Of a stretch of DNA of 64,000 bases, positions 4,769-56,062 are shown in pieces. Made by a program: the position numbers and the translations under genes. Each line of letters begins with the position of its first letter. The first letter of the stretch is position 1. Source of the DNA: Escherichia coli 042 (GTDB taxonomy: Bacteria; Pseudomonadota; Gammaproteobacteria; Enterobacterales; Enterobacteriaceae); NCBI RefSeq assembly GCF_000027125.1, contig NC_017626.1; one strand, 5' to 3'. A model generated the notes under the pieces. That model was not told the origin of the DNA. It did no database searches and worked only from the letters and a program-made list of their open reading frames with translations.

Positions 4769-6082
4769 ATGAAAAATATAAAATTCAGCCTGGCCTGGCA
4801 GATTCTGTTTGCTATGGTGCTGGGCATTCTCCTGGGAAGCTACCTGCACTACCATAGCGACAGCCGCGACTGGCTGGTCGTCAATTTGCTCTCTCCGGCG
4901 GGTGATATCTTCATCCATCTGATCAAAATGATTGTTGTGCCGATTGTGATCTCCACGCTGGTGGTGGGTATCGCGGGTGTTGGTGATGCCAAACAGCTCG
5001 GGCGTATTGGCGCGAAAACCATTATTTACTTCGAGGTGATCACCACCGTCGCCATCATTTTGGGGATCACTCTGGCGAACGTCTTCCAGCCCGGTGCCGG
5101 GGTGGATATGTCGCAGCTGGCGACCGTCGATATCTCGAAATATCAGAGCACTACGGAAGCGGTACAAAGCAGTTCCCACGGCATTATGGGCACGATTTTG
5201 TCGCTGGTGCCGACGAACATTGTGGCGTCGATGGCGAAAGGCGAAATGCTGCCGATCATCTTCTTCTCGGTGCTGTTTGGTCTGGGGCTTTCCTCCCTGC
5301 CCGCGACGCATCGTGAACCGCTGGTGACCGTGTTCCGCTCCATCTCTGAAACCATGTTTAAAGTGACTCATATGGTGATGCGTTATGCGCCGGTGGGTGT
5401 GTTTGCGCTGATTGCGGTGACGGTGGCTAACTTTGGTTTCTCGTCTCTGTGGCCACTGGCGAAACTGGTGCTGCTGGTGCATTTCGCCATTCTGTTCTTC
5501 GCGCTGGTAGTGCTGGGAATTGTGGCGCGCCTGTGCGGGTTAAGCGTCTGGATCCTGATTCGTATTCTGAAAGATGAGCTGATTCTGGCGTACTCCACTG
5601 CCAGCTCTGAAAGCGTGCTGCCGCGAATTATTGAGAAGATGGAAGCCTACGGTGCACCGGCGTCGATCACCAGTTTCGTGGTGCCGACCGGTTACTCTTT
5701 TAACCTTGATGGTTCGACGCTGTATCAAAGTATTGCCGCTATTTTCATCGCTCAGCTGTATGGCATTGACCTGTCCATCTGGCAGGAAATCATTCTGGTA
5801 CTGACGCTGATGGTGACCTCGAAAGGGATTGCTGGAGTGCCGGGCGTGTCGTTTGTGGTGTTGCTGGCAACGCTGGGCAGCGTAGGGATCCCGCTGGAAG
5901 GTCTGGCGTTTATTGCCGGTGTTGACCGTATCCTCGACATGGCGCGTACTGCGCTGAACGTGGTGGGTAATGCGCTGGCGGTGCTGGTGATTGCCAAGTG
6001 GGAACACAAATTTGACCGTAAGAAAGCGCTGGCTTATGAGCGCGAAGTGCTGGGCAAATTTGATAAAACTGCGGATCAATAA
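4769..6082 (+). CDS. gltP: Glutamate/aspartate:proton symporter
   Basis: 437 aa polytopic membrane protein recognised as GltP (DAACS family); AGGA-containing RBS upstream. Confidence 0.95.
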   Translation: MKNIKFSLAWQILFAMVLGILLGSYLHYHSDSRDWLVVNLLSPAGDIFIHLIKMIVVPIVISTLVVGIAGVGDAKQLGRIGAKTIIYFEVITTVAIILGITLANVFQPGAGVDMSQLATVDISKYQSTTEAVQSSSHGIMGTILSLVPTNIVASMAKGEMLPIIFFSVLFGLGLSSLPATHREPLVTVFRSISETMFKVTHMVMRYAPVGVFALIAVTVANFGFSSLWPLAKLVLLVHFAILFFALVVLGIVARLCGLSVWILIRILKDELILAYSTASSESVLPRIIEKMEAYGAPASITSFVVPTGYSFNLDGSTLYQSIAAIFIAQLYGIDLSIWQEIILVLTLMVTSKGIAGVPGVSFVVLLATLGSVGIPLEGLAFIAGVDRILDMARTALNVVGNALAVLVIAKWEHKFDRKKALAYEREVLGKFDKTADQ

Positions 6083-6117
6083 TTGAAGATTGCCGGGGAT
6101 ATCCACCCGGCAATGTG

Positions 6118-6388
6118 TGGATGCCTGATGCGACGCTTGCCGCGTCTTATCAGGCCTACGCTAGACTGCGCAATAGCTTGATTTAGGGTGATTTTGTAGG
6201 TCGGATAAGGCGTTTACGCCGCATCCGACATCAATATCTGATGCGACGCTTACCGCGTCTTATCAGGCCTACGCCAGACTGCGCAATAGCCTGATTTAGC
6301 GTGATTTTGTAGGTCGGATAAGGCGTTTACGCCGCATCCGACATCAATGCCTGATGCGACGCTTGTCGCGTCTTATCAGGCCTACCTT
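6118..6388. repeat. REP/BIME cluster: about 2.3 tandem copies of a ~116-120 bp unit, each containing inverted REP palindromes
   Basis: Directly visible repetition of gatgcgacgcttgccgcgtcttatcaggcctac... and gtaggtcggataaggcgtttacgccgcatccgaca; REP consensus-like sequence between convergent gltP and yjcO. Confidence 0.85.
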
Positions 6389-7076
6389 AACCGTTGGTTA
6401 ATTTCTCAAACTCTTCACAACCGGTATCAAACCCTTCCATACAGCTCAGGTTCAGCCAGTGCAGCGCCTTTTGCTTGTTCTTCTCGATAAAACCTTCTTC
6501 ACCGTTTAAGAACATCATTCCCGCCCAGTACTCGGAATAACCGGTTCGGGAAATCGCAGAGCTGCGTTTGAAATACCAGGTTGCCTTGTCATCGTCGGCC
6601 TTAATGCCCACGCCGTTGGCGTAAATCAAACCAAGCAGCATTTGGGCATCGACGGCAGAGTCGTTCTCCAGATCTTCCGAAGCGTTTTCTAACAGCGAAA
6701 TCGCCTTTGGATAATCCGGTTTACCCGCTTGCGTATTTACCAGAATATGCGCCAGCGTTACTTCACCTTCTTTACTCCCCGCTTGCGCTGCTTTCTCTGC
6801 AAGAACTTTTGCTTGTGGATAGTCCAGACTGACCGGATTGGTGATTTTGATCTGCGCCAACAGCGCGCAGGCATCAGCATCACCGCTGTCGGCGGCTTTC
6901 TGTGCCCAATATTCGGCTTTGCTCAAATCGCCGGAGCTAAACCAGCTGTCGGCAAGAAAATATTGTGCGCGTCGGTCCCCGGCCTCTGCTGCCTTTAAAT
7001 ACTGGCTGCCAGGCTCGGAGTCGTTCGCGTGGGCAAAGAATGTCAAAAACAACATCAATGCGATAATTTTTTTCAT
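6387..7076 (-). CDS. yjcO: Sel1-repeat (TPR-like) periplasmic protein
   Basis: 229 aa with signal peptide (MKKIIALMLFLTFFAHA) and repeated Sel1-like motifs; position between gltP and fdhF. Confidence 0.85.
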   Translation of the reverse strand: MKKIIALMLFLTFFAHANDSEPGSQYLKAAEAGDRRAQYFLADSWFSSGDLSKAEYWAQKAADSGDADACALLAQIKITNPVSLDYPQAKVLAEKAAQAGSKEGEVTLAHILVNTQAGKPDYPKAISLLENASEDLENDSAVDAQMLLGLIYANGVGIKADDDKATWYFKRSSAISRTGYSEYWAGMMFLNGEEGFIEKNKQKALHWLNLSCMEGFDTGCEEFEKLTNG

Positions 7077-7169: not shown

Positions 7170-9317
7170 TTACGCCAGTGCCGCTTCGCGCAGGCGAGTT
7201 TTCAACTTGTTGTACTCGTCAATCACGTACTGCTCGGCGGCGCGCTGATCGGCGATCGACTCGACGCGCACGGCGCAGTATTTGTATTCCGGCGTTTTCG
7301 TAATCGGGCTTAAGTTTTCGGTAACCAGCTCGTTACAGGCACCAATCCACCACTGGTAGGTCATATAAATCGCCCCTTTGTTCGGACGATCGCTGACCTG
7401 CGCACGGGTGATAATTTTGCCTTTACGCGAGTGCACCCAAACCAATGCCTCATCTTCAATACCCAGACGTTTGGCGTCTTCGGTATTGATTTGTGCGTAG
7501 CCAGGTTCATCAGCCAGCGCCGCCAGTGCCGCACAGTTACCGGTCATCGAACGGCAAGAGTAGTGACCAACTTCACGCACCGTTGACAGTACCATCGGAT
7601 ACTCGTCGGTGAGTTTGTCGATTGGCGCTACCCAGTCGCAGGTGAAGAACTGCGCCAGACCGTTCGGGGTATCAAACTTCTCTTTAAACAGATAAGAAGT
7701 CCCCTGATCGGCATCTGAAGTATCGCGGCAAGGCCACTGAATGAAGCCCAGTTCGCCCATTTTCTCGTAAGTCGCACCGTAGAAATCCGGGCACAGATGA
7801 CGCAACTCATCCCAGATCTCCTGGGTGTTGTTGTAGTGCATCGGATAACCCATACGAGTGGCAATTTCACTGATGATTTGCCAGTCCGTTTTCAGATCCC
7901 ATTTCGGTTCAACTGCTTTGAAGAAACGCTGGAAGCCACGGTCAGCCGCAGTAAACACGCCTTCATGCTCGCCCCACGACGTTGACGGTAAAATAACATC
8001 CGCCGCCGACGCGGTTTTGGTCATAAAGATGTCCTGAACGATAACCAGTTCCAGATCTTCAAAGGCTTTACGTACTGCCGACAGCTCCGCGTCAGTTTGC
8101 AGCGGATCTTCGCCCATAATGTACGCGGCACGCACTTCGCCATGCGCTGCGCGGTGCGGCAGCTCGCTGATGCGATAGCCGGTATGCGCTGGCAGGCTTT
8201 CCACGCCCCAGGCTTTGGCGAATTTCTCGCGGTTAGCCGGATCTTTCACGTACTGGTATCCCGGATACGTATCCGGCAGCGCGCCCATATCGCAGGCACC
8301 CTGCACGTTGTTCTGACCACGAACCGGGTTTACACCCGCATGCGGCTTACCGAGGTTACCGGTCAGCATCGCGAGGCTGGTCAGAGAACGCACGGTTTCC
8401 ACGCCCTGGTAGAACTGGGTTACACCCATGCCCCACAGGATGGCGGCGCTTTTCGCCTGGGCATACATCCGTGCCGCCTGACGAATCTCACTGGCGCTGA
8501 CGCCGGTGATATCTTCAACCGACTCCGGCGTGTAGCCTTCAACGATTTTACGATACTCTTCAAAGCCTTCTGTACGGGAAGCGACGAATGCTTTGTCGTA
8601 CAGATTTTCTTCAATAATGACATGGCCCATCGCATTCAACAGCGCGATGTTCGAGCCGTTTTTCAGTGCAATGTGGATGTCCGCAATGCGCGCGGTTTCA
8701 ATTTTGCGCGGATCGCAGACGATAATTTTCGCCCCGTTACGTTTAGCGTTAATTACGTGATTCGCCACGATTGGGTGGGAATCCGCCGGGTTGTACCCGA
8801 AAACGAACACTAAATCGGTATTATCAATTTCGTTAATAGCATTGCTCATTGCGCCATTACCGACCGATTGGTGCAGACCTGCAACCGATGGGCCGTGTCA
8901 GACACGAGCGCAGCAGTCAACGTTATTGGTACCAATAACGGCGCGCGCAAATTTTTGCATTACATAGTTGGTTTCGTTACCCGTACCACGCGAGGAGCCG
9001 GTCGTCTGGATGGCATCCGGACCGTACTTCTCTTTGATGGCGCTCAGGCGCTCGGCAACGTAATTCAGTGCCTCATCCCAGGAAACAGGTTCGAGTTTGC
9101 CGCCACGCTGGCGACGGATCATGGGGGTTTTCAGGCGCGGGGTCAGGATCTGGGTATCGTTAATGAAATCCCAGCCATAATAACCCTTCAGACACAGGGT
9201 ACCCTGGTTGGTTTTCCCCTGCGCTGCCTCCGCCCGGACGATTTTGCCGTTATCGACGACCAGGTTGATTTTGCAACCTGATGCGCAATAGGGGCAAACC
9301 GTGACGACTTTTTTCAT
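7170..9317 (-). CDS. fdhF: Formate dehydrogenase H (selenocysteine/molybdopterin enzyme); in-frame UGA at 8898-8900 decoded as Sec
   Basis: ORFs 8898..9317 and 7170..8849 are in the same frame, separated only by TGA (complement of tca at 8898-8900); together 715 codons; N-terminal Cys cluster (CPYCASGC). Confidence 0.95.
8850..8897 (-). other. SECIS mRNA stem-loop directing selenocysteine insertion at the fdhF UGA
   Basis: Immediately 3' of the UGA on the coding strand: CACGGCCCAUCGGUUGCAGGUCUGCACCAAUCGGUCGGUAAUGGCG, which I recognise as the fdhF SECIS hairpin. Confidence 0.85.
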
Positions 9318-28978: not shown

Positions 28979-29137
28979 GATGGTGACCTCAGTTAAGAGA
29001 AGCCAGTTAAGTGTAGTTCGAAATTTATACAGATGAGAGGGAAGCCTGATAAGACGCGGTCAGCGTCGCATCAGGCAGTCGGCATCGTTGCCGGATGCGG
29101 CGCGAGCGCCTTATCCGGCTTACCGATCACAATACAA

Positions 29138-34744: not shown

Positions 34745-34794
34745 GCTGAAACGGATGGCCTGATGTGACGCTGTCTTATCAGGCCAATTGAAGT

Positions 34795-34811
34795 CTTAAG
34801 GTTCACTTAAT
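34795..34811 (+). promoter_or_regulatory. PmrA (BasR) box upstream of pmrR
   Basis: CTTAAGGTTCACTTAAT is a hexamer direct repeat with 5-bp spacer, matching the PmrA box pattern CTTAAT-N5-CTTAAT, about 45 bp upstream of the pmrR ATG. Confidence 0.7.
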
Positions 34812-34855
34812 CTCTGACGCGCATACTCTCCTCCAGGTTAACGGAGGAGAGTGCA

Positions 34856-34945
34856 ATGAAAAACCGTGTTTATGAAAGTTTAACTACCGTGTTCAGCGTG
34901 CTGGTGGTCAGCAGCTTTCTTTATATCTGGTTTGCCACGTACTGA
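34856..34945 (+). CDS. pmrR: PmrR, 29-aa membrane peptide (LpxT inhibitor)
   Basis: ATG at 34856 preceded by GGAGGA; encodes MKNRVYESLTTVFSVLVVSSFLYIWFATY; below the ORF-track size cutoff; its 3' end overlaps the convergent basS 3' end. Confidence 0.8.
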   Translation: MKNRVYESLTTVFSVLVVSSFLYIWFATY

Positions 34946-36012
34946 TCTTTCTTCAGCCGTACCCAGGCCCGCGTGCCGGAAGTCTCTTGCCGGTTTTGCA
35001 GGAAAAACTGCCCGTGATGCAACTGTGTAATGCGGCTGACAATACTTAACCCCAGACCAATCCCGCCATAACGGCTGTCCATACGTACAAACGCTTTACT
35101 CAACTCCCCGCATTTACTCTCATCAATACCCGGTCCTTCATCTTCAACGGCCATGACCGCTCCGCCATCTTCTTGCAGCTTAATCATAATGTTGCTGCCT
35201 TGCGGGCTGTAACGATGGGCGTTTTCTACCAGGTTTCGCAATAACATCCGCAGCAGGGTTGCATCACCTTGAACGGTGATGTCGGCGGCGCTCTCTGGCA
35301 ATAGCAGGGTTTGCTGTCGCTGGTCGAGCATGGTACTGAGTTCGTCATACGAGGGGAGAATGACATCTTCCAGCAGTTTTACATGTTGATAATTACCGGA
35401 AGAAAATGACTGTCCGGCACGCGCCAGTTGCAGCAGCTGGGAGACACTCTCCATCATCTGATCAAGCCGTGCCACTAACGGTGCTACATCAATGTGATGC
35501 GTTTTCGCCAGCAGTTCCAGATGCAAACGCACCCCCGCCAGTGGCGTTCGCAGTTCGTGCGCGACGTCAGCGGTAAACAACCTTTCGTTATCCAGCGTGC
35601 TGGTCAGGCGACTGACCAGATCGTTCAACGCCGAAACCACCGCTTCGATTTCGAGGGTGGCGCTGTGAATGGCAATAGGCGTTAAGTTGTCGGCGGTGCG
35701 CGCTTCCAGCTCTTTTTGCAGCTCCGCCAGCGGCCGGGTGATGCGGCGTACCGCCTGATAGCAGATAAATAGCGTCAGGCTGACCATAAAGACGCCGGGG
35801 ACGATCAGGCTGGCGACCGCCTCGCGGATCTCACGCATGATGTGGCGATCGTTGTTGCGATTGTCGCGTAGCGCCTGCTCAAACAGCTGAATCTGCTCGG
35901 TACTTTCATGCCATAGCCAGAAGACGCTGATCAGCTCAAACACCAACAAAATGGCCCCAATGGTCAATATCAGCCGTTGGCGCAGCGATATTGGTCGGCG
36001 CAGAAAACGCAT
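34921..36012 (-). CDS. basS: BasS (PmrB) sensor histidine kinase
   Basis: HisKA and HATPase motifs (HELRTPL, GIGLGLSIV); start uncertain between 36012 and 36021. Confidence 0.9.
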   Translation of the reverse strand: MRFLRRPISLRQRLILTIGAILLVFELISVFWLWHESTEQIQLFEQALRDNRNNDRHIMREIREAVASLIVPGVFMVSLTLFICYQAVRRITRPLAELQKELEARTADNLTPIAIHSATLEIEAVVSALNDLVSRLTSTLDNERLFTADVAHELRTPLAGVRLHLELLAKTHHIDVAPLVARLDQMMESVSQLLQLARAGQSFSSGNYQHVKLLEDVILPSYDELSTMLDQRQQTLLLPESAADITVQGDATLLRMLLRNLVENAHRYSPQGSNIMIKLQEDGGAVMAVEDEGPGIDESKCGELSKAFVRMDSRYGGIGLGLSIVSRITQLHHGQFFLQNRQETSGTRAWVRLKKDQYVANQI

Positions 36013-53191: not shown

Positions 53192-53464
53192 ATGGAAATA
53201 CGCGAAGGCCACAATAAATTTTACATTAATGACGAACAGGGCAAGCAAATCGCTGAAATTGTCTTTGTGCCGACCGGAGAGAATTTAGCGATTATCGAAC
53301 ATACCGATGTCGATGAAAGCCTGAAAGGGCAAGGGATTGGTAAACAGCTGGTTGCGAAAGTCGTGGAAAAAATGCGTCGGGAAAAACGAAAAATTATCCC
53401 ACTATGCCCATTTGCGAAACACGAATTTGATAAAACGCGTGAGTATGATGATATTCGAAGTTGA
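53192..53464 (+). CDS. yjdJ: YjdJ, small GNAT-like acetyltransferase
   Basis: 90 aa; Q/R-x-x-G-x-G/A-like motif (GQGIGKQL); 11 bp after yjdI. Confidence 0.8.
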
Positions 53465-53692
53465 TGGGAGAGTACAGAGTCACGATATTTTTCTTGCTCT
53501 CCGCGGTGTGATGCAGGAGAGTATCTGAAGGGTAGGGGGATGCACAAAGAATGGTCAGAGAGAGCGTTTTTTTGTCCCAAGTCATCCCCTTTACTGAGCA
53601 AAAAAAAAAGAATATCTCCTATATGAAAATCATCGATCGGGGTTAATAAGTTTTGCGTCCCCAGAGCGTTCAATATTGATAGGAGTCATATT

Positions 53693-53989
53693 ATGGAAGG
53701 TAAAAACAAGTTCAATACTTATGTTGTTTCTTTTGATTATCCATCATCTTATTCCTCAGTGTTCTTAAGGTTAAGATCATTGATGTATGATATGAATTTC
53801 TCCTCTATCGTGGCTGATGAATATGGGATACCACGACAATTGAATGAAAACTCCTTCGCAATAACGACATCGTTAGCCGCAAGTGAAATCGAAGATTTAA
53901 TCAGGCTTAAATGCTTAGACTTACCGGATATTGACTTTGACCTCAACATTATGACAGTTGATGATTATTTCCGTCAGTTTTACAAGTAG
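53693..53989 (+). CDS. ghoS: GhoS (YjdK), type V antitoxin endoribonuclease
   Basis: 98 aa ORF directly upstream of the 57-codon ghoT ORF; recognised as YjdK. Confidence 0.8.
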   Translation: MEGKNKFNTYVVSFDYPSSYSSVFLRLRSLMYDMNFSSIVADEYGIPRQLNENSFAITTSLAASEIEDLIRLKCLDLPDIDFDLNIMTVDDYFRQFYK

Positions 53990-54016
53990 CCAGGAAGGAT
54001 AAGAAGAACATAAAAA

Positions 54017-54190
54017 ATGGCACTATTCTCTAAAATATTAATTTTTTATGTGATTGGTGTGAACATATCCTTTGTCATTATCTGGTTTATCTCACATGAG
54101 AAAACACATATTCGTTTACTTAGTGCATTCCTGGTCGGAATAACCTGGCCAATGAGTCTGCCTGTGGCATTACTTTTTTCTCTCTTTTAG
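54017..54190 (+). CDS. ghoT: GhoT (YjdO), small membrane-lytic toxin
   Basis: 57 aa hydrophobic ORF MALFSKILIFYVIGVNISFVIIWFISHEKTHIRLLSAFLVGITWPMSLPVALLFSLF; below the ORF-track size cutoff; 27 bp after ghoS. Confidence 0.8.
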   Translation: MALFSKILIFYVIGVNISFVIIWFISHEKTHIRLLSAFLVGITWPMSLPVALLFSLF

Positions 54191-54308
54191 GAGCTGTAGT
54201 TGAGTGGACCCGCTGGTTATCTTGAAACGAAGCGTCTCTCCTCATAACTGGATTTGCGGAACGACGAACGAAGCAGTCGCCTGACTGCTTCGTTCATTTA
54301 AGTGAAAT

Positions 54309-55826
54309 TTATTTCTGTGGGCGCATCGCCGGGAAGAGAATAACGTCGCGAATAGTATGGCTGTTAGTAAACAGCATAATCATTCGGTCGATACCAATAC
54401 CCAGACCAGCGGTTGGCGGCAGACCATATTCCAGCGCAGTCACGTAATCTTCGTCATAGAACATGGCTTCGTCGTCACCTGCAGCTTTAGCGTTAACCTG
54501 TTCCTGGAAACGTTCAGCCTGATCTTCTGCGTCGTTTAATTCGCTAAAACCATTACCGATTTCACGACCACCGATGAAGAATTCAAATCGGTCGGTGATT
54601 TCCGGGTTAACATCATTACGGCGCGCCAGCGGAGACACTTCTGCCGGATATTCCGTAATAAAGGTTGGCTGAATCAGATGTGCTTCTGCCACTTCATCAA
54701 AGATCTCCGTAACAATACGTCCCAGACCCCAGCTTTTCTCTACCGTAATTCCGATAGATTCAGCTAATGCTTTAGCAGCATCAAAATTATCCAGGTCGGC
54801 CATATCGGTTTCTGGACGATATTTTTTGATTGCTTCGCGCATGGTGAGTTTTTCAAACGGTTTGCCGAAATCAAACACATGCTCGCCATAAGTGACTTTA
54901 GTGGTACCAAGAACCTCTTGTGCCAGGGTGCGGAACAGGGACTCCGTCAGTTCAATCAAATCGTGGTAATCCGCATACGCCATGTAGAGTTCCATCATTG
55001 TGAACTCAGGATTATGGCGAACAGAAATACCTTCATTACGGAAGTTACGGTTGATTTCGAATACCCGTTCAAAACCGCCTACAACCAGACGTTTCAGATA
55101 CAGCTCTGGCGCGATACGCAGGTACATATCTAAATCCAGAGCGTTATGATGGGTAATAAACGGGCGAGCAGATGCCCCACCTGGAATTACCTGCATCATC
55201 GGGGTTTCTACTTCCATAAAGCCGCGCGCGACCATGAACTGACGGATAGCGGCCAGAATTTTTGAACGGACAACAAACGTTTGACGGGATTTATCGTTAG
55301 CGATGAGGTCCAGATAACGTTGACGATAACGGACTTCCTGATCCTGCAGACCATGGAATTTATCTGGTAAAGGACGTAGTGCTTTAGTCAGCAGGCGCAG
55401 CTCAGTACAGTGAATGGAAAGCTCACCCGTTTGCGTCTTAAACAGCGTACCGCGGGCACCGATAATGTCACCCAGATCCCATTTTTTAAACTGATCGTTA
55501 TAAACACCTTCTGGCAGGCTATCTCTTGCAACGTACAGTTGAATACGGCCACCGACATCCTGCAACGTTACAAAGGAGGCTTTCCCCATGATACGACGGG
55601 TCATCATTCGGCCAGCAACCGAGACTTCAATGTTTAAGGATTCCAGTTCCTGGTTATCCTTCGCATCAAACTCTTCGTGCAACTGGTCAGAGGTATGGTC
55701 GCGGCGAAAATCATTGGGAAACGCCACACCTTGCTGACGTAGTGCCGCCAGTTTTTCGCGGCGATTTCTCAGTTCATCGTTAAAATCAATAGCCTCATTG
55801 GCTCCCCGTGTTTCTCGTTCAGACAT
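54309..55826 (-). CDS. lysU: LysU, inducible lysyl-tRNA synthetase
   Basis: Start chosen at [11 protein letters not shown] (505 aa); class II aaRS motifs; adjacent to dtpC and cadA, which distinguishes it from lysS. Confidence 0.9.
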
Positions 55827-56062
55827 TTTGGTTCCTCTAAATCCAGCTTTCAATTTAGCGTAGATAAAGAGACAGATCGGTACACTGTATTATCTGCCTC
55901 GACTATTAATAACTCAGTTTATCTTATCGAAACTAACGCTTACCTCAAGTTGATATCACTAATAAATAACCATAAAAATGGTTTAAATGACTTATTAATC
56001 TCGATTTGCTAGTGTGATAAACTGAAAGTTAATTTATTCATAACCAATTGTTTTTACGACAG

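Follow-up and report, generated by a model that had tools for sequence, protein, structure and literature searches.

GhoT/GhoS is the founding and well-characterised type V toxin–antitoxin system. Its closest described version for the present comparison is that of Escherichia coli K-12 (b4559/b4128), which was reportedly described by Wang et al. (2012, Nat Chem Biol 8:855). The hallmark of the type, the cleavage of ghoT mRNA by the antitoxin GhoS, has been demonstrated experimentally with K-12 sequences identical to those found here (PMC4344625, PMC4010927, PMC3874152). E. coli also has an orphan paralogue of GhoT, OrtT (YdcX), which belongs to the same family (PF10753) and resembles GhoT in its length of 57 aa and in its layout of two transmembrane (TM) helices (PMC4344625). 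Its gene is located elsewhere, in the order patD-yncL-ortT-ydcY, without an adjacent ghoS; moreover, OrtT is not neutralised by GhoS, and the ortT mRNA has two GCU sites (PMC4344625). On the antitoxin side, GhoS was described as Cas2-homologous, with Cas2 as its structural homolog and with R28 among five catalytic residues that are conserved (PMC4010927), whereas there is no CRISPR context at ghoST and GhoS serves as an antitoxin against a specific mRNA. GhoT is also comparable with the type I toxins TisB, Hok and Ldr, which are likewise small hydrophobic peptides of the inner membrane dissipating the proton motive force and ATP (PMC3874152). In contrast to these toxins, whose antitoxins are antisense RNAs, GhoT is counteracted by a protein, an RNase whose gene precedes ghoT in the shared operon.

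The window, a stretch of 64,000 nt from E. coli 042 (contig NC_017626.1), contains a locus that is almost certainly the chromosomal ghoS–ghoT (yjdK–yjdO) type V toxin–antitoxin operon of E. coli. Both proteins, the gene order, the 27-nt spacer and the flanking genes are the same as in K-12, and the asymmetry in GCU sites and the downstream hairpin (see below) are also shared. The differences from K-12 are neutral only, and the sequence holds nothing that speaks against this reading.

The ghoS and ghoT genes of strain 042

Gene and protein identity, key residues, architecture, genomic context and the GCU asymmetry were observed directly in the window. A listing of open reading frames (ORFs) down to 30 aa returned both frames described in the earlier note, each on the plus strand and with an ATG start: one of 98 codons at 53693-53989 and one of 57 codons at 54017-54190, separated by the 27-nt gap that had been claimed (53990-54016). 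The lack of the second frame in the ORF track, pointed out in the same note, is consistent with its length, since 57 aa falls under the tool's default cutoff of 60 aa. An in-frame TAA at 54011-54013 precedes the ATG of the shorter frame, so that 54017 is the earliest possible start of ghoT.

The upstream gene had been named yjdK and equated with ghoS, and this holds. Its product of 98 aa matches the Pfam family GhoS (PF11080, E=6.1e-41) over profile positions 6-93 of 94 and is identical in 98/98 residues both to b4128 of E. coli K-12 MG1655 and to PDB 2LLZ (deposition title 'Uncharacterized protein yjdK'). The DNA differs from b4128 at 4 of 297 nt, all four differences being synonymous. Residues 24 to 31 read F24 L25 R26 L27 R28 S29 L30 M31. 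All three positions discussed for GhoS in the literature, L25, R28 and M31, are therefore kept, and R28 was called the most important for the endoribonuclease activity (PMC4010927). The gene is preceded by a Shine–Dalgarno (SD) element AGGAG on the plus strand at 53681-53685, with an anti-SD duplex of -6.8 kcal/mol and a canonical spacing of 7 nt before the ATG.

The downstream gene, ghoT (yjdO), encodes a protein of 57 aa matching PF10753 (Toxin_GhoT_OrtT, E=8.9e-26) over the complete profile (positions 1-55 of 55). The earlier note had named two findings that would speak against its reading of this frame as GhoT, a lack of homology and a disabling mutation. Homology was found over 57/57 residues and 174/174 nt of b4559 with zero differences, and there is no disabling mutation, because the nucleotide sequence is identical to the K-12 gene throughout. 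The interpretation of the two frames as a ghoS–ghoT pair is thus supported, with the position of the ribosome-binding site (see below) as the sole inaccurate detail. RefSeq names the products in E. coli strain A10 and other sampled E. coli 'type V toxin-antitoxin system endoribonuclease antitoxin GhoS' and 'toxin GhoT'. The search of NCBIfam gave no match to GhoS or GhoT at E<=0.01, which is attributed to library coverage, the Pfam matches and the identity to K-12 being conclusive.

The two TM helices expected for the toxin were also recovered at the level of prediction. Two hydrophobic segments lie on either side of the polar stretch SHEKTHIR (residues 26-33), the overall GRAVY is 1.5, and the maximal Kyte–Doolittle means in a 15-residue window are 2.57 for the N-terminal segment and 1.72 for the C-terminal one. 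An AlphaFold2 single-sequence model has helices at residues 2-28 and 30-56 (mean pLDDT 80.6), in agreement with the two-TM prediction published for the GhoT/OrtT family (PMC4344625). GhoT of this locus is accordingly predicted to be small and hydrophobic, with two helices across the membrane. Residue F38 is present. Its exchange for arginine (F38R) was reportedly found by Wang et al. (2012) to abolish the toxicity of GhoT. The possibility that the toxin in the window is OrtT was rejected: the protein is 63% identical to OrtT over 57/57 residues as opposed to 100% to GhoT, its gene starts 27 nt past ghoS, and it adjoins lysU.

As stated in the earlier note, the surroundings are otherwise metabolic, with dcuB, dcuR, dcuS, yjdI and yjdJ upstream and lysU, dtpC and cadA downstream. 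The order dcuB-dcuR-dcuS / yjdI-yjdJ-ghoS-ghoT / lysU-dtpC-cadA is common to K-12 and A10. For lysU, the mechanical ORF at 54309-55853 uses a TTG start and has 514 aa, compared to 505 aa in RefSeq (54309-55826). PGAP calls this gene lysS in most genomes, while the synteny with K-12 identifies it as the lysU copy.

Conservation, mechanism and native role of the pair

In the 844 nt between the yjdJ stop and the lysU stop, 19 differences from K-12 were counted, of which 11 fall in the 228-nt upstream intergenic region (including a poly-A length difference, A10 vs A8), four in ghoS, none in ghoT and four in the 118-nt 3' region. Such a distribution is in keeping with purifying selection on both ghoS and ghoT. 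The latter gene is unvarying across the seven E. coli sequences compared. In the sampled genomes, a single amino-acid change was seen across both proteins, N35S in GhoS (WP_001317561.1) of E. coli D10, a dog isolate (192-488 of the locus extract). A region of 821 nt is 100% identical to that of strain A10, obtained from wood-wren faeces in Mexico. Of 5426 complete E. coli genomes, 5264 carry at least 80% of this region, nearly always as a single copy with 95-99% identity, and 88 gave no match whatever.

In E. coli KFu022 (NZ_CP091677.1), isolated from river water, ghoS-ghoT-lysU-dtpC-cad are missing, and an IS1A directly after yjdJ is followed by an integrase fragment, tRNA-Phe, dicD and dsbD (5074-6520 of the locus extract). 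The arrangement suggests that the entire block, cad genes included, was lost in an IS1-associated deletion. In E. coli E2863 (808-819 onward in the locus extract) and UTAK-8, the lysU gene beside ghoT is recorded as a pseudogene, an incomplete 'amino acid--tRNA ligase-related protein'; ghoST is intact in these bovine- and veal-derived strains.

A mobile or plasmid-borne ghoST module was sought in a plasmid database, and no evidence for one was obtained there. All nine records with GhoS are large non-mobilizable Escherichia records with lengths between 94 kb and 4.9 Mb, and three have the size of a chromosome. In comparison, toxins of the GhoT/OrtT family are encoded on 78 large plasmids of Pantoea (about 56% identity) and on a few plasmids of Salmonella, Klebsiella and Proteus. 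Since GhoS homologues are restricted to the Escherichia records of this database, most plasmid-borne members of the GhoT/OrtT family appear to be orphans, like OrtT.

As to the function of the type V pair, co-transcription of ghoS and ghoT is said to have been demonstrated directly in the primary ghoST work (Wang et al.). The terminator scan returned no terminator-like site between the two genes, nor elsewhere in the scanned region, which is compatible with one operon; the literature, too, refers to a ghoST operon or transcript (PMC11783221). For the cleavage by the enzyme, the damage to the membrane and the cascade from MqsR, the account follows published work on identical K-12 sequences (PMC4344625, PMC4010927, PMC4905990, PMC3874152, PMC11783221). 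According to this work, the two genes would be transcribed together with the antitoxin gene first, and GhoS, a small Cas2-like sequence-specific endoribonuclease, would cut the ghoT part of the transcript, whereby little GhoT would be made. Once synthesized, GhoT is expected to insert in the inner membrane and damage it, lowering the proton motive force and ATP and probably leading to 'ghost' cells and a raised antibiotic tolerance. In stressed cells, the ghoS part would be degraded and the ghoT part spared by MqsR, a type II toxin with RNase activity specific for 5'-GCU; cleavage of ghoS with its three GCU sites would enrich ghoT, which has none, and the balance may thus shift to the toxin.

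Indeed, three GCT trinucleotides (5'-GCU, MqsR-type sites) were counted on the plus strand of ghoS, starting at 53813, 53905 and 53913 (span 53813-53915), and zero in both the spacer and ghoT. The same asymmetry at the same positions was found in 7/7 E. coli sequences. Zero GCT in ghoT alone is not significant, as about 11% of mononucleotide shuffles likewise contain none. The asymmetry, which has been published (PMC4344625, PMC4905990, PMC3874152), is consistent with the MqsR–GhoST model and is not an independent proof of it; the basis of the cascade is likewise given in PMC11783221.

A further question is whether the pair works as a toxin–antitoxin module at native expression levels. The designation might mainly reflect an overexpression phenotype, with GhoT as a low-abundance membrane protein and GhoS as a broader RNase tuning about 20 transcripts, among them those of purine and pyrimidine genes, and with no native killing or dormancy module acting in stress or persistence. 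Several observations lean that way: overproduced GhoS leads to the degradation of about 20 other transcripts (PMC4010927), the data on GhoT toxicity come from plasmid overexpression (strain table of PMC4344625), and the weak and distant SD element of ghoT suggests a low native translation. The pair is, moreover, a near-universal, vertically inherited core locus in a metabolic neighbourhood and does not lie on a mobile element. The roles of chromosomal toxin–antitoxin systems including MqsRA are contested in one source (PMC6918082), the main text of which makes no mention of ghoS or ghoT and offers no direct challenge to GhoST. Against this reading, RNA-seq revealed an imbalance between ghoT and ghoS transcripts when (p)ppGpp was high and mqsR induced, in line with the cascade (PMC11783221), and the GCU asymmetry is conserved (7/7). 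Overall, a phenotype mainly of overexpression is a plausible caveat but is considered rather unlikely, and the type V toxin–antitoxin operon is preferred.

Translation signals of ghoT and the non-coding DNA

The spacer between ghoS and ghoT (53990-54016, plus strand) has 27 nt, is rich in purines and particularly in A, and is the same in 6/7 genomes, with a 1-nt difference in the seventh. The ribosome-binding site had been placed near 54005-54012, and this could not be upheld, as no pairing of the stretch AGAACATA with the anti-SD falls below -2.5 kcal/mol. The sole SD-like element for ghoT is AGGAAGGA inside the spacer at 53992-53999, with -6.5 kcal/mol, located 17 nt upstream of the ATG. In the anti-SD scan, ghoT is thus a gene without a canonically spaced SD, which is a caveat to the type V operon as the best explanation of the locus.

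The start codon of ghoT is overlapped by a perfect A/U-rich inverted repeat of 11 nt on the plus strand, with arms at 54008-54018 and 54041-54051 (span 54008-54051). In isolation, it folds at -6.0 kcal/mol, and when the region is shuffled by dinucleotides, any perfect 11-nt inverted repeat within 120 nt arises in only 2.8% of cases. In the 121-nt context, the hairpin is missing from both the minimum free energy (MFE) and the centroid structure, and this segment folds no better than its shuffles (z=+1.05). The repeat might form a weak hairpin that occludes translation. By-eye reading of the ortT initiation region gave no obvious equivalent.

These features bear on the possibility that ghoT is additionally or mainly under a type I-like control, by an antisense sRNA or by a cis structure of the mRNA occluding the start, and not by GhoS cleavage alone. 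The inverted repeat over the AUG, with its low frequency in shuffles, would be in line with such control, as would two overlapping promoter-like sites on the minus strand inside ghoT (54063-54034) and the similar size and target of GhoT and the type I toxins (PMC3874152). However, the promoter-like sites of the scanned region are at chance level (5 found vs 3.0 +/- 1.6 expected), the Rfam search returned no family within 53400-54400, and the hairpin does not appear in the predicted fold of its context. A type I-like regulation of ghoT is considered very improbable, and cleavage by GhoS is kept as the mode of control.

Beyond GhoS cleavage, a non-canonical initiation region of ghoT, combining the SD-like AGGAAGGA 17 nt upstream, an A-rich leader and the potentially start-occluding 11-nt repeat, might add a translational brake in cis; separately, the length of the poly-A tract upstream of ghoS could give lineages differing set-points of GhoST. 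Both suggestions are speculative and on the whole unlikely, and no description of a cis translational brake on ghoT was found in the literature surveyed. The tract in question (53600-53609) has ten A in the window (A10) and eight in K-12 (A8). Among the seven E. coli sequences, A10 occurs in three and A8 in four, with no intermediates.

The tract lies in the yjdJ–ghoS intergenic region of 228 nt (53465-53692, plus strand), which is presumed to hold the ghoST promoter. A sigma-70 consensus scan gave no promoter-like site within 53465-53692. On the other side of the pair, between the convergent ghoT and lysU, a perfect GC-rich hairpin of 13 bp with a 4-nt loop is located at 54266-54295 in 7/7 genomes compared. 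It has a clean T-run on neither strand, and for this reason it was missed by the terminator scan; it is likely a shared terminator or a stabiliser of the 3' ends.

Elsewhere in the window, matches to Rfam at gathering level, all of them away from ghoST, were obtained for the sRNA STnc630 (181 bits), for three naRNA4/CssrE elements and for one SECIS_2 selenocysteine insertion element, the coordinates listed being 34787-34952, 29043-29120, 6199-6269, 6312-6382 and 8851-8905.

A 57-codon gene below the ORF cutoff

The reading of the 57-codon frame as a chance ORF or a decayed pseudogene, for which its shortness below the usual ORF cutoffs, its AT-rich composition (41% T) and its lack of a canonically spaced SD might speak, is refuted by the Pfam match across the full-length profile, by the 100% identity to an experimentally characterised K-12 gene with zero substitutions although the flanking DNA varies, and by the paralogy with OrtT over all 57 residues.

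The locus is already known and is an intact, routine copy from the core genome that offers nothing new. Its scientific weight is little, the protein sequences being identical to the reference. The value is rather one of annotation: a genuine functional gene of 57 codons beneath a 60-aa ORF cutoff was recovered by reading the sequence alone, and ghoT can serve as a useful positive control for the detection of small ORFs. Minor curiosities that remain are the far-spaced SD element of ghoT, the inverted repeat over its start codon and the A8/A10 dimorphism of the poly-A tract.
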